From Candidatus Cloacimonadota bacterium (GTDB taxonomy: Bacteria; Cloacimonadota; Cloacimonadia; G963667145): a stretch of DNA of 64,000 nucleotides. The notes under the pieces are model-generated. The model did no database searches, was not told the origin of the DNA, and saw only the letters and a program-made list of their open reading frames with translations. Of this stretch, positions 34,478 through 52,675 are shown piece after piece. A program made the translations under genes and the position numbers. The DNA is taken from positions 1,175,702 to 1,239,701 of the forward strand of contig OY762940.1 in assembly GCA_963667255.1 (NCBI GenBank). The letters run 5' to 3'. Numbering within the stretch: position 1 is the first letter of the stretch; every line of letters begins with the position of its first letter.

Positions 34478-35624
34478 TTAATTGGGTCTAATTTCCACTC
34501 CTTTTGAATAATTATTGAACCAAATTTTCAAAAAATGATTCATATTTTTTTCAGATTTAAATCCGTCTAAATTTTTTAATTTCCTATTCAATTGTCGATT
34601 AATATTTTCAATTTTATTTGTTGTTTTATCCAAAAAATCGTAATGAAAATGAGCAGTTAATAAACCAAAGTTTCGATTAATTGATTTAATAAAACGCTTA
34701 TGAATTTTTAGGCGAAAAAATTTTTCATAGTGATTAAGCGAACTTAAATTATTTTCAGCTTCTTGTAAAGTTTCAGCATTTAAAATGCTCTTAATCAAGT
34801 TCTTAAAGAAAATATTTCGTCTAAAAAACTTACTCTTTTTTGTTTTAGGAACATTGATATTAACGCTTCTTAAATAATGAACCAAGCAAATTTGATGTGG
34901 AACATCTTCAAAAAGTTGGTTAACTGGCTTAACAAAGCACATTGATATTAACGCTTCTTAAATAATGAACCAAGCAAATTTGATGTGGAACATCTTCAAA
35001 AAGTTGGTTAACTGGCTTAACAAAGCACTTCCCTCGCCCAAAATCTGACACAATCCCAATTATTTTGTTGTCATACATTTTTTTTAGTCTATTCAAAAAG
35101 TCTTCAGATGAACTACTATGTTCTCTATCATAAATCTTGTAATATATTGGTTTATCAAGTAGTTTGCTACTGGCGACTAAGACAACTTTTCGCTTACCGT
35201 TTATCTTAATTTCCTTGCCATCAATATAAATTGTTGTCTCATCTATATTGCTGTGTAACACATTATCCTGATATAAATTAGCTCGCTGAGGTATCCAATT
35301 AAGAATACTATTTTTACAAATCCCATGTCTTTTAGCAACTTCAGAAAGAGAACTTTTGGTTGAAATATAGTCAGTAACAACCTTATCTTTGAATTTTGGT
35401 GCAAAATGAGTTCTCTTATTATATCCAAAATTGGTAAAACTTATTTGGCAATCTTTACAATAAAATCGTTGAGTTTTGACTTTAATTTTCCCACGATTAG
35501 TTGTTCTTTCAGAGAAAATATATCCCTTCTTTTTTGTGTTTAAGCTATCACAATTTGGACAGTGTTTTTTTTGATTATACTCATGGCATTTTAATAAATG
35601 TTCATAACTTATTCTGTCAAACAT
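34478..35624 (-). pseudogene. DDE transposase with N-terminal zinc ribbon, disrupted by an 88-bp tandem duplication (frameshift)
   Basis: Two overlapping minus-strand ORFs (34929..35624 and 34478..34942). Both contain the same peptide GRGKCFVKPVNQLFEDVPHQICLVHYLRSVNINV. CPNCDSLN...CKDCQ zinc ribbon at the N-terminus. Confidence 0.7.
34851..35026. repeat. perfect 88-bp direct tandem duplication inside the transposase gene
   Basis: acattgatattaacgcttcttaaataatgaaccaagcaaatttgatgtggaacatcttcaaaaagttggttaactggcttaacaaagc occurs at 34851-34938 and again at 34939-35026. 88 is not a multiple of 3. Confidence 0.9.
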
Positions 35625-48798: not shown

Positions 48799-48816
48799 AA
48801 TAGCTGATTAATTTTT

Positions 48817-48851
48817 AAAAAACGGAATTGAAACTCAATTCCGTTTTTTTT
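48817..48851. terminator. strong bidirectional rho-independent terminator between lysA and the low-GC cassette
   Basis: aaaaaacggaattgaaactcaattccgtttttttt. 9-bp perfect stem cggaattga/tcaattccg with A-run and T-run. Confidence 0.75.
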
Positions 48852-48932
48852 GTTATACTTGATTTAGTTTAGATATTTGGGTGGAGGGCGTTATTGGCTG
48901 TTGTATGTAGTTTAGCTTATTATATATTTTAC

Positions 48933-50216
48933 TTACTCTCCCTCATTTAGGTTAGTCTCTCTCAATAAACCTATTTCGCTTGGAATATCAAAATCATCAA
49001 CGGTTTCATTGTCATATAAGAACACAATTTTTTTTCCGCATTTATAAGCATATCCGATTTCAAGAGAGGTTTTTGTTCCTACATATTTGTCAAAGTTGCA
49101 AACTATAATCATGTCACATGTTTCAATTGCTTTTAAGTGAAGTGCTTCAACAGACCAAGTGCAACGGTTAATAATTTTATCATTTTTAAAAAGAATAAAA
49201 CCTTTCTCAGACCCAACCACTTCAGTATTTAATGGACTATCTACAGTAATACCTTGAGTTTTGAGCACGCCAATTAGCTTTGTAATTTTATCAAGTTGTT
49301 TATTAAAACTTCCGCAAATTACAACATTTTTTACCTCTTGAACATTTATTCCATCAATTAAATTTGAGTCTGAGGGAATTATTTTGTTTATCCCATATTG
49401 CATACAAATAGCTTGAGCTATTGCGGAACAAGCTCTTGCTCCATTCATCCAAGCCGGATTATTAGGCATCATATTACGCAAATCAGCAATTGTTATTTCA
49501 GAAAATATACGTTTATTCTGAATACAATAATTATCAATTGTAATCATTGATGGATGATTTTCATCATCAAAAATATTGTTTTTCTCTAAATAATATCCTG
49601 CAACGTTCATATATGTTAATTCTCCACCTGTATATATTGCAGTATCATATCTTCTATCAACAAAAGGAAGCATATTTGAAATATACTCAACTACTTCGCT
49701 TAAAGGAGTTGGGCTGTACTCTTCATTTATCGCGTTATATTTTTTTAGTATTGTTCCAACACCCAAAGATAACATTTTTCGTTCCGTTACGAAACCGTTA
49801 TTGTAAAAAATCAATTCCGTTGTTTTTCCTCCTATATTTATAATCACTAACTTATTCTTATAATCACAATTTCCTATCCATGCTTTTTCCAAATAAAATG
49901 CCTCTAATTCATGTGAAACAATATTAAAAAAAAGTCGAGTCATAGTATAAAATTCTTCAATAAAAGCTTGCTTATTAGTAAGCTCTCTAAAAATTCCTGT
50001 AGCAAACAACTTAGTATTACTACGTGTAAGTGATAATTCTTCTATCGTTTCATTAAAAAACGAGTACATGTTTTCTTTATTCAGACTTGATAAACCTATC
50101 GCTGAGTCAAATTCATCCTTAAAATCAAATGTTTTCGCTTTAATAAGTTTTACTCTTACCCCATCATGTGTATATATTTTTACAGTTGAAGATCCTACAT
50201 CAATTAAATATTTCAT
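48933..50216 (-). CDS. two-domain protein: Ppx/GppA-like ASKHA domain + C-terminal nucleoside 2-deoxyribosyltransferase (NDT/Rcl)-like domain (cassette gene B)
   Basis: ATG 50216 with AAGGA RBS; the ORF-track TTG 50261 is less likely. Ppx/GppA phosphate-1 motif YLIDVGSSTVKIY. Phosphate-2-like VIINIGGKTTELIF. AIYTGGE. C-terminal GTKTSLEIGYAYKCGKKIVFL resembles the DSGTAFEIGYA...GKP motif of NDT-fold enzymes. GC visibly lower than flanking genes. Confidence 0.6.
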   Translation of the reverse strand: MKYLIDVGSSTVKIYTHDGVRVKLIKAKTFDFKDEFDSAIGLSSLNKENMYSFFNETIEELSLTRSNTKLFATGIFRELTNKQAFIEEFYTMTRLFFNIVSHELEAFYLEKAWIGNCDYKNKLVIINIGGKTTELIFYNNGFVTERKMLSLGVGTILKKYNAINEEYSPTPLSEVVEYISNMLPFVDRRYDTAIYTGGELTYMNVAGYYLEKNNIFDDENHPSMITIDNYCIQNKRIFSEITIADLRNMMPNNPAWMNGARACSAIAQAICMQYGINKIIPSDSNLIDGINVQEVKNVVICGSFNKQLDKITKLIGVLKTQGITVDSPLNTEVVGSEKGFILFKNDKIINRCTWSVEALHLKAIETCDMIIVCNFDKYVGTKTSLEIGYAYKCGKKIVFLYDNETVDDFDIPSEIGLLRETNLNEGE

Positions 50217-50253
50217 TTTTTCATCCTTAGTTATTGTTTTTTTCCGTAATAAG

Positions 50254-52371
50254 TTAATCAATATTTTCTATTGGCCAATATTCTTTTGGAATGAATGATA
50301 ATTGCACATCCTCAATTGGCTTTTGCCAAAATGCAATTGTTTTCCTTAAGGCATATGCATAATATATTTCGCATTTTGTCGATTCCCCTATATATCCATT
50401 ATTATATTTATTACATATAAAAAGGACATCACAATCATCTATTGCTGTTAAGTGTTCATACTCTGTGTCGGGAGAAATATCTTTTTTTAACTTTCCCTTT
50501 CGATCAAATTTTGGGCTTAATACCTTAACATCTTTCATTTCTTCCATTTTTTTACTGGCTTTATACAAGTATTTAGTTCCTTTATCATGAGTAGTCCCAC
50601 TAATTACAATATTAAAAACATACGCATTTATATTTGCACTAATAGTTAAATCGTCTTTCGGAATTACTATCTTATTATTTAGCTTATCAAGAATAGTTTC
50701 AATAATTATATGTCCAAATTTGAAGCCATGTAGTCTTTTCACCATTGTTTCATCGTCATACTCTTTTTTTAAGGACTCTAAATAATTTGCAGAAAATAAC
50801 GCTTCTCTATTATGAATTTTATATTCATCTTGAGAAAGACATTGCTCATTTGCATTTTGCTTTAGTCGATATCCCATTTCATTCATAAATTTCAATTCAC
50901 CCTTTAGTATAATCGCTTGATTAATCTTTACTCCATCTAGCGATGATTCTATTTTATTTTCTATAAATTTCTTTATTTTATTAATTGAGTTATCATCCCA
51001 TACTTCCGATGCAATATTAGTGGATACATAAGTTTGAACATCTTTTATCGTTACTAATAAATTGTACTCATGATATTCTTTTCCAGAATAATATAAAATA
51101 TCTGTGCAATGAGAACCTATATTAATTATTGCCGTCCCATCACTTAAATTTCCAAACAAACGATCAATGTTTTCAGTTGTTTTCTCTTTAGAGATAATAT
51201 TAAAATACAGATTTGTTTCTTTATAGAATTTCCGGATAACATCTTTTAACTTTTTAGGCTCATTTTCGTTAAATATTTCCCCAAATCTATAATCTACGAA
51301 AACTTTTCTCAGCATTTGAGAATCATTTTTATGTACTTTCTCTGATTGTAATAAGGATTTTACGCAAGCTATAATTTCATCGAGATGAAAATTGTCTTTA
51401 AAAACATCACAGTTATAGCTTATCATCTCAAGTTCCTTAGAATTATCTTTGTCTATAATTTCAAAAAGACGACATGATGTTGTTCCAATGTTTATAAAGT
51501 AACCTAATGGTCCAGCTACTTTTTTAGGTTTTTTATTCATATTATTTTGTTGTTTTTTTTTTTGCGTAATGCTTCCTGTTGATATGTTTCTTTTTTTGGG
51601 CAATTTATCAAATGCATTTTTTTTTAAAAACACGTGTTCTAATAATGATACAGCTGCCTTTGAAGCCATAATTTGATTTTTTTCTTTGTTCGGATTTTCT
51701 TTATTTACTCCCCAATCACAAATCGCTTTTACAATTATCCATTCGTCCATTCTTGCTTTTTTGCATGCAGCATAAGCCCCACGTCCTTCCATTTCTCCAC
51801 CAATTGCACGTGGTGCATCCTTAAAAAGTTTTTTCTTGTAGACAAGATCATCTACAACTTTATTTCCTGATAGAATCATTCCAAATTCACATTTTAATTT
51901 TCTTGAGCCACTATAGTTCTCCCATGTTTTTGAGTAATTCTTAAAAACTGATAATAATGTTTCTCCTGCCTCTGCTCTTACTCCATCAGATAGGAATTTT
52001 CCATTTGTTATTTTACCACTTTCACAATCTACCATAATTTCTGATATTAAAACATCTCCAATATGTTGCTTAGGGTTTTTTTCATTTCCGTTCTCTTTAC
52101 CAAATGCAATTCCAAGCAAAATTACAGCATCTGGTTCCCACCCTTTAATAGCCGCATTAATTGAAAATAATGCAGCTCCTGTTTTTGCTGTTCCTTTATT
52201 TTGCAATTCAAAATGAATTATATCATAATTCCCTATTTCCCCAACATTATAAAAATTGTTATCATCGGTGGCTTTAGCCCGCTGATTCTTTTCGTAATTA
52301 AAATTTTTACAATTTAGTAATGCATTTGTTTCATGATTGTTCGCCGTTACAAGTAGAAATCGTTTCTTCAT
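50254..52371 (-). CDS. three-domain protein: N-terminal PNP/MTA-nucleosidase-like domain + Ppx/GppA-like ASKHA domain + C-terminal NDT/Rcl-like domain (cassette gene A)
   Basis: ATG 52371 with AGGAG RBS; the ORF-track TTG 52389 would add 6 aa. PNP_UDP_1 signatures: FLLVTANNHETNALL, DAVILLGIAFG, AIGGEMEGRGAYAAC and IIVKAICDWG. Compare MTAN AVEMEATAIAHVC/VVRAISD. Mid-domain GYFINIGTTSCRLF and IINIGSHCTDIL (Ppx/GppA-like). C-terminal GESTKCEIYYAYALRKTIAFW (NDT-like). Confidence 0.6.
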   Translation of the reverse strand: MKKRFLLVTANNHETNALLNCKNFNYEKNQRAKATDDNNFYNVGEIGNYDIIHFELQNKGTAKTGAALFSINAAIKGWEPDAVILLGIAFGKENGNEKNPKQHIGDVLISEIMVDCESGKITNGKFLSDGVRAEAGETLLSVFKNYSKTWENYSGSRKLKCEFGMILSGNKVVDDLVYKKKLFKDAPRAIGGEMEGRGAYAACKKARMDEWIIVKAICDWGVNKENPNKEKNQIMASKAAVSLLEHVFLKKNAFDKLPKKRNISTGSITQKKKQQNNMNKKPKKVAGPLGYFINIGTTSCRLFEIIDKDNSKELEMISYNCDVFKDNFHLDEIIACVKSLLQSEKVHKNDSQMLRKVFVDYRFGEIFNENEPKKLKDVIRKFYKETNLYFNIISKEKTTENIDRLFGNLSDGTAIINIGSHCTDILYYSGKEYHEYNLLVTIKDVQTYVSTNIASEVWDDNSINKIKKFIENKIESSLDGVKINQAIILKGELKFMNEMGYRLKQNANEQCLSQDEYKIHNREALFSANYLESLKKEYDDETMVKRLHGFKFGHIIIETILDKLNNKIVIPKDDLTISANINAYVFNIVISGTTHDKGTKYLYKASKKMEEMKDVKVLSPKFDRKGKLKKDISPDTEYEHLTAIDDCDVLFICNKYNNGYIGESTKCEIYYAYALRKTIAFWQKPIEDVQLSFIPKEYWPIENID

Positions 52372-52508
52372 AAGCCATTCTCCTCTCAAAATATAGTACC
52401 TGTCTATTTAATTTCAAATTAAAATATTTTGCATTTATGTTGTTTTGTTTTTTAATATTTATCTTAATTTCCCTTCCAAATTGTACACAACATTTAAATA
52501 ACCTCAAC

Positions 52509-52544
52509 TGTGTTTATTTATCCAAATTGGGAGGGATAAACACA
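52509..52544. repeat. inverted repeat in the divergent intergenic region upstream of cassette gene A
   Basis: tgtgtttat (52509-52517) and ataaacaca (52536-52544) are perfect reverse complements. The arms extend to tatcc/ggata with a 3-nt bulge. Confidence 0.5.
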
Positions 52545-52675
52545 ATTGCCTTTATTTTCCTTTATATTTTTATTCACAATAAAAAAGTTAAGTTTTCTTT
52601 GTCAACTCATATTTCCTTGACTGATTTTTCCTTTTAATCTTCTTAAAATCACTATCTAAATCAAGGAAAATTTAA

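Follow-up and report, generated by a model that had tools for sequence, protein, structure and literature searches.

What is a pair of adjoining genes for when their products share two domains with each other and when the whole pair is missing from the equivalent place in a sister genome? The question is raised by genes A and B of a Candidatus Cloacimonadota bacterium (assembly GCA_963667255.1), two co-directional minus-strand genes that lie between lysA (end 48798) and an HD-domain gene (start 52676) in a 64,000-nucleotide stretch of contig OY762940.1 (positions 1,175,702 to 1,239,701; hereafter the window). Both products join an ASKHA domain to a C-terminal domain that resembles nucleoside 2-deoxyribosyltransferases (NDTs) and DNPH1 (Rcl), and A carries in addition an N-terminal PNP-type nucleosidase head. 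Enzymes of nucleotide salvage, sanitisers of the nucleotide pool and one retron effector are known to have the NDT/DNPH1 fold. As the pair forms the constant core of a mobile cassette with interchangeable toxic heads, we suggest that A+B is most likely an anti-phage defence system that reads nucleotides.

Paralogous C-terminal domains with an NDT-like fold

An earlier note on this DNA, made from the letters and translations alone, had described the C-terminal domains of A and B as paralogous, and the comparison of the proteins bears this out. Full-length A and B align over A295-687 and B16-414 (BLASTP E 2e-17, 24% identity), that is, across both the ASKHA and the C-terminal domain, in line with the proposal that the ASKHA + NDT module as a whole was duplicated. 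The duplication stands, but the tandem event envisaged is not a recent one: at 24% identity the copies are ancient or fast-diverged, and B-like proteins are widespread without A. Family profiles of the C-terminal domains, built from 27 B-type and 23 A-type sequences (alignments A1 and A2), align with each other well above noise (hhalign 99.7%, E 6.6e-26, 105 columns). The peptides first quoted for the two domains are present in the minus-strand open reading frames of B and A, and the approximate nucleotide ranges given for them (48970-49320 in B and 50290-50640 in A) fall inside the domains as delimited here (Table 1).

Could the resemblance to NDTs be due to chance, or to a generic Rossmann-like likeness? 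The single-sequence scores of the window proteins against Pfam PF05014 (Nuc_deoxyrib_tr; gathering cut-off 28.8 bits) are indeed under the cut-off (21.9-23.9 bits for B, 15.1-19.2 bits for A), profile searches against PDB sequences are weak (E 0.005 to 0.39, the former for BcmB with B), and structural matches reach TM-scores no higher than 0.5-0.65. However, PF05014 is matched at E<0.1 by 27/27 B-type and 19/23 A-type domain homologues, and some longer B homologues (48-66% identity) pass the cut-off at 36-44 bits. AlphaFold2 (AF2) models of the two domains (pLDDT 90.7 for both; pTM 0.84 and 0.86), independent of each other, rank solely NDT-superfamily chains first among PDB structures (Foldseek, E 1e-4 to 1e-3), the top matches being BcmB, BpNDT, CtNDT and DNPH1 for B and TbNDT, BcmB, LmNDT, DNPH1 and MilB for A; in a library of viral structures, NDT-annotated proteins likewise rank first. 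With the motif-level alignment to DNPH1 and to the NDT of L. leichmannii (LlNDT) described below also consistent, we regard the explanation by chance as effectively refuted. Because the profile searches against PDB are marginal, the assignment rests on the AF2 models and the family-wide Pfam matches, by which the C-terminal domains of A and B are, at the level of fold, paralogous members of the NDT/DNPH1 superfamily. A reading of the G-x-x-T-x-x-E motif as SLOG/LOG was dropped, given that Pfam LDcluster4 scores were lower than NDT scores and the structure matches were NDT-type.

A variant pocket that keeps the nucleophile position

For the pocket residues, the sequences of DNPH1 and LlNDT were checked against the PDB chains (those of DNPH1 include the mutants E104Q, D80A and D80N) and then aligned to the family profiles; hhalign statistics are weak for such single-sequence templates, and the alignment is consistent with the structure matches rather than an independent proof. 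It places a conserved Glu (Glu674 in A, Glu386 in B) at the position of the nucleophile, E104 in DNPH1 and E98 in LlNDT, as the earlier note had supposed. HMMER alignments agree, setting the TSLEIGYA of B against THIEIGWA in BcmB and the TKCEIYYA of A against TAWELGAS in BpNDT. The residue opens the helix that follows beta4, as is characteristic of the superfamily, and a single homologue in each family lacks it (present in 108/109 for B, 43/44 for A). The beta1 loop resembles the 5'-phosphate loop of DNPH1: where DNPH1 has the C-G-S of GSIRGG, B has C-G-S and A has S-G-(S/T).

The rest of the catalytic apparatus is different. The position of the catalytic Asp (D80 in DNPH1, D72 in LlNDT) is occupied by His in 152/153 A and B sequences, that of the catalytic Tyr (Tyr24 in DNPH1, Tyr7 in LlNDT) is aliphatic (Val/Ile) in both paralogues, and the position of Asp92, which binds the 5'-OH in LlNDT, is Gly in both. 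Neither paralogue has the Asp72, Asp92 and Tyr7 of an LlNDT-type enzyme, and of the DNPH1/Rcl triad (Tyr24, Asp80 and Glu104) the Glu alone is kept. The pocket is nevertheless strongly conserved within each family: among 109 B homologues we count the loop Gly in 109, its Ser in 107, E357 in 108, the His in 108, an Asp in 108, Gly380 in 106, Glu386 in 108, a Lys in 107 and the Pro and Glu of the tail in 108 and 107, and among 44 A homologues the Gly, His, Asp, a second Gly, Thr, Lys and a tail P-x-E-x-W in all 44 and the Glu in 43. The description NDT/Rcl-like therefore holds for the fold and not for NDT or Rcl proper (Asp to His, Tyr to Val/Ile), and of the proposed sequence layout the Glu/A...K arrangement stands while GT-x-x-E-I gives way to Y-x-G-x-x-T-x-x-E-I-x-(Y)-A...K as the form that A and B share. 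On these residues the two domains are neither canonical NDTs nor Rcl but a separate subfamily that lies outside the capture of Pfam.

In Rcl and NDT structures, the absence of an Asp six residues before the Glu predicts a 5'-phosphorylated ligand. As both paralogues lack this 5'-OH-binding Asp and both have the G-S loop, such a ligand is predicted here too, and by this analogy a nucleoside 5'-phosphate would occupy the NDT-like pockets.

A mostly intact and a degenerate ASKHA domain, and a nucleosidase-type head

The ASKHA domain of B belongs to the Ppx-GppA family of Pfam (PF02541, 35.9 bits against a cut-off of 27), and its profile finds the A. aeolicus PPX/GPPA structures (1t6d/2j4r) at 7e-16 over about the N-terminal 290 residues. 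It retains IDvGSS, the Glu of an LE pair aligned to the catalytic Glu of PPX, and GG..E, and it has Asn at the position of the phosphate-2 Asp (NIGG vs DQGG). That of A, recognized by its alignment to B, has no Pfam match, and its family is without DxGSS, the catalytic-type Glu (Thr/Gln instead) and GG..E. By these motifs the ASKHA domain of A is degenerate and that of B mostly intact.

Ahead of its ASKHA-like domain, and separated from it by a Lys-rich linker, A carries a domain of the PNP/MTAN fold that matches PADLOC PDC-M60C (5e-12) and the CBASS model 'Effector PN-superfamily' (2e-7), and NCBIfam MTAN at 7e-8 (32 bits against an equivalog cut-off of 169). Aligned with S. aureus MTAN, it keeps the catalytic motifs GGEMEG (EME) and ICDW (ICD), and its closest relatives are fused to NB-ARC/TPR, TIR, HD or NACHT domains. 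These features point to a probable Cap17-type ATP nucleosidase. Cap17-like PNP effectors that degrade ATP occur in CBASS, Avs, short pAgo, DRT8 and Detocs systems (bioRxiv 10.1101/2023.01.24.525353). In the open-access literature searched, PDC-M60 itself is mentioned in one survey only. The earlier note had offered a sensor-plus-effector pair as one possibility; this survives in spirit, but the presumed effector is the N-terminal PNP head of A, which is swapped in orthologues, and not an NDT-like domain.

Interchangeable heads on a mobile core

In a sister genome (1.54 Mb) the flanks of the locus are conserved at 83-84% nucleotide identity, and the A+B cassette is missing from the equivalent slot. 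GC content within the cassette falls to 0.289 (at 50-52 kb of the window) in a contig of 1.59 Mb with about 37% GC. The sister slot (L069:11836-14246) holds Transposase_mut fragments and a 357-amino-acid RelA_SpoT-domain protein. This protein matches the PADLOC candidate PDC-S33 (5.7e-20), and since a different defence candidate occupies the same place, the slot resembles a small defence hot spot. Elsewhere, A+B pairs are found patchily, in Diplocloster, Agathobacter, Oscillospiraceae, Acutalibacteraceae, Actinomyces, Thiotrichaceae and the archaeon Methanocorpusculum, in neighbourhoods that are unrelated to one another (polysaccharide loci, SLFN/AlbA_2-HATPase, Peptidase_U49, an integrase).

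The part of A that varies is its head. In most orthologues it is PNP; in others it is TIR-like (P0167), PRTase-CE (P0392), a cytidine/dCMP deaminase (P0393) or SMEK_N (P0292 and P0300), and in a few it is unrecognized (L012, P0394-6). At one locus (L010) the PNP is a gene of its own, split from A, and some A proteins are headless. SMEK counts as one of the nuclease domains that short pAgo partner proteins carry (PMC10810196). From these comparisons the ASKHA + NDT-like module is the constant core and the N-terminal head of A the interchangeable part of a mobile cassette. Swapping of heads on a constant core is the signature of a conflict system whose constant part senses or regulates.

In one Clostridia metagenome-assembled genome (MAG; L014:3375-6510), a headless A follows two predicted membrane proteins (308 and 196 amino acids) and a tyrosine-recombinase-like gene; neither membrane protein has a Pfam or PADLOC match, and the two may stand in for the enzymatic head as a membrane effector borne on a mobile element.

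The same observations bear on a more mundane reading, in which the locus is a housekeeping operon for nucleoside salvage, with PNP as a phosphorylase, the NDT-like domain as a deoxyribosyltransferase and ASKHA as a kinase or phosphatase, in a small genome of about 1.6 Mb. All three domain families do have salvage members, and B-like proteins are common in the salvage-dependent genomes of the candidate phyla radiation (CPR) and DPANN; however, a housekeeping operon sits poorly with a cassette that is missing from the sister slot, low in GC and patchily distributed across domains of life, with a PNP head that is replaced by TIR-like, deaminase, PRTase-CE or SMEK nuclease domains, and with closest PNP relatives that are found on NLR-type proteins and an MTAN score far under the equivalog cut-off. 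We hold this reading to be very improbable.

B-like genes also occur alone. About 40 MAGs of Patescibacteria/CPR, of DPANN and of other organisms with small genomes (L017-L068) carry solo genes for ASKHA + NDT-like proteins, at 40-45% identity, and clustering of their neighbours revealed no A and no conserved partner, the most frequent neighbour being shared by at most 6/49 loci. The MAGs include small 'Gammaproteobacteria', and about 10 further MAGs have an ASKHA-only version of about 295 amino acids. The next gene downstream is 3-methyladenine-glycosylase-like, as assigned by eye, in 6 loci.

Coupling of A and B

Wherever the contig permits a view, a separate A-type gene is directly followed by B; at one extreme the two overlap by 8 nt, at the other they lie about 50 nt apart (in the window, B starts 37 nt past the stop codon of A). 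The exception is the SMEK_N proteins, which combine an A-type ASKHA domain, an A-type NDT-like domain and a second, B-like NDT-like domain in one chain, and for which no B gene was seen. NDT and DNPH1 are dimers with active sites shared between subunits. A fusion of the Rosetta-stone type such as that of the SMEK_N chain lends indirect support to a heteromer of A and B, and together with the strict adjacency of the genes, 11 proteins with tandem NDT-like domains and long B variants with two NDT-like stretches it leads us to expect an A:B complex.

Tight coupling of this kind would also be expected of a toxin–antitoxin-like pair, in which B sequesters the toxic head of A by heterodimerizing and its loss or titration frees the toxin, with no nucleotide ligand involved. 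The paralogous modules are suited to dimerize, and the degenerate ASKHA domain of A fits such an arrangement. A steric antitoxin has no need, however, of a pocket (GS loop, His, Thr, Glu and tail P-x-E) that is invariant in both proteins, nor of an ASKHA domain in B that keeps most of its catalytic motifs, and we consider this alternative improbable.

Proposed model

We propose that the history of the cassette began with a B-like bifunctional enzyme, composed of a Ppx/GppA-type phosphohydrolase and a nucleoside-monophosphate-binding NDT-like pocket, that was duplicated; ASKHA catalysis would then have decayed in one copy, which also acquired an effector head, making A the pseudoenzyme copy. 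Duplication of such an enzyme is the simplest account of the pair. A and B would associate, probably via their NDT-like domains in the manner of NDT and DNPH1 dimers, and the pockets would have as ligand, and possibly as substrate, a nucleoside 5'-phosphate that rises or falls on phage infection, with the ASKHA domain of B possibly trimming phosphates. The change in ligand would release the PNP head of A, which would deplete ATP and thereby abort the infection. To this reading as a whole, that is, a mobile two-gene cassette in which nucleoside 5'-phosphate bound by the NDT-like pockets of an A:B heteromer controls an ATP-degrading head, we give even chances of being right. A broader version, more doubtful than the reading just given, is that A+B represents a hitherto undescribed anti-phage family whose enzyme/pseudoenzyme pair derives from a bifunctional enzyme still present by itself in CPR/DPANN genomes, and whose His-variant, DNPH1-like pocket for nucleoside monophosphates would sense a nucleotide that comes or goes with infection (for example, a dNMP modified by the phage, such as hydroxymethyl-dCMP (hm-dCMP) or hydroxymethyl-dUMP (hm-dUMP), or an alarmone) and switch on ATP nucleosidase, TIR-like, PRTase-CE, deaminase and SMEK heads.

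Several points weigh against the model. The solo B-like genes, without A or conserved neighbours, indicate that the core module functions outside any defence cassette. The placement of the PNP head in the Cap17 clade was drawn from its fusion partners and the PADLOC match, not from a tree. Among PADLOC v2.0.0 models, the PNP head of A is the only part that matches; the A core and B match none (for B, a single ThsB-like match at E 0.03), and no single catalogued system covers both genes. Finally, Glu and His are strictly conserved and fusion to MazG recurs in the subfamily (next section), both of which fit catalysis as well as they fit sensing.

The wider subfamily and the case for catalysis

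The NDT-like domain is not confined to the cassette. When a hidden Markov model of the B-type domain was searched exhaustively, 3722 representatives scored E<=1e-3 and 495 of them E<=1e-10; the subfamily is recognizable by (C/S)GS(F/T), LSP, E-x-x-H, Y-x-G-x-x-T-x-x-E and a tail P-x-E. The top 147 matches comprise 25 ASKHA fusions, 56 stand-alone proteins (110-170 amino acids), 45 proteins with a C-terminal extension, 11 tandem pairs and 7 with an N-terminal extension. Stand-alone members, which score only about 20 bits on PF05014, have the motifs GSFRK, VLSP, E..H and GY.G.S...E.G.A in common; tandem members, like these, are common and score under the PF05014 cut-off. A class of about 250 amino acids (245-260) joins the NDT-like domain to MazG, the latter above its cut-off in 9/9 tested; examples among the representative-library matches are P0274, P0282, P0299, P0302 and P0305. 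On these architectures the subfamily is repeatedly coupled to a nucleoside-polyphosphate phosphohydrolase, in one lineage MazG and in the other a Ppx/GppA-type ASKHA domain.

P0340 adds a LuxR helix-turn-helix and P0310 an 8xMP membrane domain to the MazG–NDT-like fusion. Long B variants (P0002-P0005, P0011, P0013 and P0018; 500-606 amino acids) have an extra 100-180 residues that resemble a second NDT-like stretch and also carry a precomputed PF27219 match. Judging by equal lengths of the longest contigs, some of them appear to pair with A variants that have no PNP head (P0004 with the PRTase-CE protein P0392, P0011 with the deaminase P0393).

The coupling to phosphohydrolases brings in the main rival to the model, in which the NDT-like domains are catalytic N-glycosidases of nucleoside monophosphates: the phosphohydrolase of B would trim polyphosphates to monophosphates and the pockets would cut the base from the sugar-phosphate, so that the cassette as a whole would be a nucleotide-destroying effector with three glycosidase-type domains. 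The near-invariance of Glu and His in both paralogues, the DNPH1-like phosphate loop and the best structural matches, which are N-glycosidases that act on nucleoside monophosphates (BcmB, DNPH1 and MilB), are all in keeping with this, as is the repeated MazG fusion, which follows the same logic of dephosphorylation and then deglycosylation; NDT-like effectors are moreover known from retron defence. However, unrelated toxic heads that are swapped on a constant ASKHA–NDT core are what a sensor or regulator would show rather than a killing component, solo B persists in the minimal genomes of CPR/DPANN and is hence not obviously toxic, and the catalytic Asp and Tyr of NDT and DNPH1 are missing. 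We judge the rival unlikely, yet the most serious of those considered; nor does it exclude the sensor model, given that catalysis could belong to sensing.

Relation to known systems

Compared with DNPH1/Rcl, BcmB and MilB, the domains of A and B have the same fold, the Glu of E104 and, in B, a C-G-S that corresponds to C26-G27-S28 of DNPH1; in contrast to these enzymes they have an invariant His for D80, Val/Ile for Tyr24, an extra beta-hairpin, the conserved tail P-x-E and a position behind an ASKHA domain. With the NDTs of PF05014 (from L. leichmannii, T. brucei and C. thermalis) they share the fold, the E-x-G-Y-A helix motif and the Glu of E98, but they fall under the cut-off of that family and have His for D72, Gly for D92 and an aliphatic residue for Y7.

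The head of A resembles Cap17-like PNP effectors in its MTAN fold, its intact catalytic motifs, its match to a CBASS effector model in PADLOC and its relatives on NLR, TIR and HD proteins, but it is joined to an ASKHA + NDT-like module and accompanied by a paralogous second gene, an architecture unmentioned in the description of those effectors (bioRxiv 10.1101/2023.01.24.525353). B agrees with Ppx/GppA (A. aeolicus 1T6C/2J4R) in its phosphate-1 motif, catalytic-type Glu and GG..E and departs from it in having Asn for the phosphate-2 Asp, no C-terminal HD-like domain and NCBIfam scores far under the equivalog cut-offs, and the copy in A is without the motifs. By analogy, a conserved Rossmann-like nucleotide-binding module with interchangeable toxic domains recalls the SLOG domain of ThsA (Thoeris) and SAVED/CARF effectors; unlike these, the cassette has no dedicated signal synthase, and its constant module is an enzyme/pseudoenzyme pair of paralogues.

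Neither in the open-access literature, including systematic papers on defence discovery, nor in PADLOC v2 did we find such a pairing of ASKHA + NDT-like proteins with swappable heads described, and searches of the open-access literature likewise found no account of GppA/Ppx or MazG combined with a deoxyribosyltransferase. A His-variant NDT subfamily that is missed by the Pfam threshold here makes up the unchanging core of a cassette whose effectors are swapped in the classic manner. If the model is true, the enzyme/pseudoenzyme ASKHA + NDT pair would be a new type of sensor in bacterial and archaeal immunity, thousands of unannotated small NDT-like proteins and MazG fusions would gain a function, and a route would be indicated by which a housekeeping nucleotide enzyme of minimal genomes was recruited into defence.

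Features of the locus

The coordinates of the cassette and its surroundings are collected in Table 1. The longest open reading frames of both genes begin at TTG codons, but the real starts are probably the ATG codons that give proteins of 705 (A) and 427 (B) amino acids, as in database products; the product of B is identical to the database protein P0001 (100% over 427 amino acids).

Table 1 Features of the A+B cassette and its slot, in positions of the window
Feature	Position	Strand	Remarks
Gene A	50254..52371	-	705 aa from ATG 52371; PNP head + degenerate ASKHA + NDT-like domain; full-length homologues exist
Gene A, longest open reading frame	50254..52389	-	TTG 52389 start, 711 aa
A N-terminal PNP/MTAN-fold nucleosidase domain (presumed effector)	51616..52368	-	PADLOC and NCBIfam matches, MTAN alignment
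A ASKHA-like domain, catalytic motifs lost	50635..51513	-	alignment to B ASKHA
A C-terminal NDT/DNPH1-like domain	50257..50634	-	about 125 residues; Glu674 codon 50368-50370; His646 codon 50452-50454
Gene B	48933..50216	-	427 aa from ATG 50216; Ppx/GppA-type ASKHA + NDT-like domain
Gene B, longest open reading frame	48933..50261	-	TTG 50261 start
B ASKHA domain (Ppx/GppA family)	49341..50216	-	profile vs PDB
B C-terminal NDT/DNPH1-like domain	48936..49340	-	about 135 residues; Glu386 codon 49059-49061; His360 codon 49137-49139; CGS loop residues 301-303
Hairpin terminator, common to B and the convergent lysA	48817..48849	.	15-bp stem, A-run and T-run on flanks
Promoter-like site 5' of A	52576..52605	-	TTGACA-18-TATTGT, 10/12 matches; consensus match only, weak evidence
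Strain-variable slot	48800..52673	.	contains the A+B cassette only; synteny break vs sister genome at 48799 and 52674

Across the 64-kb window, no rRNA, tRNA, tmRNA or Rfam family was found at gathering score. At 34478-35624 on the minus strand, two adjoining open reading frames have the repeated peptide CFVKPVNQLFEDVPHQICLVHYLRSVNINV in common; the pair resembles a disrupted or partly duplicated insertion-sequence transposase and coincides with a dip in GC content to 0.308 at 34-36 kb.

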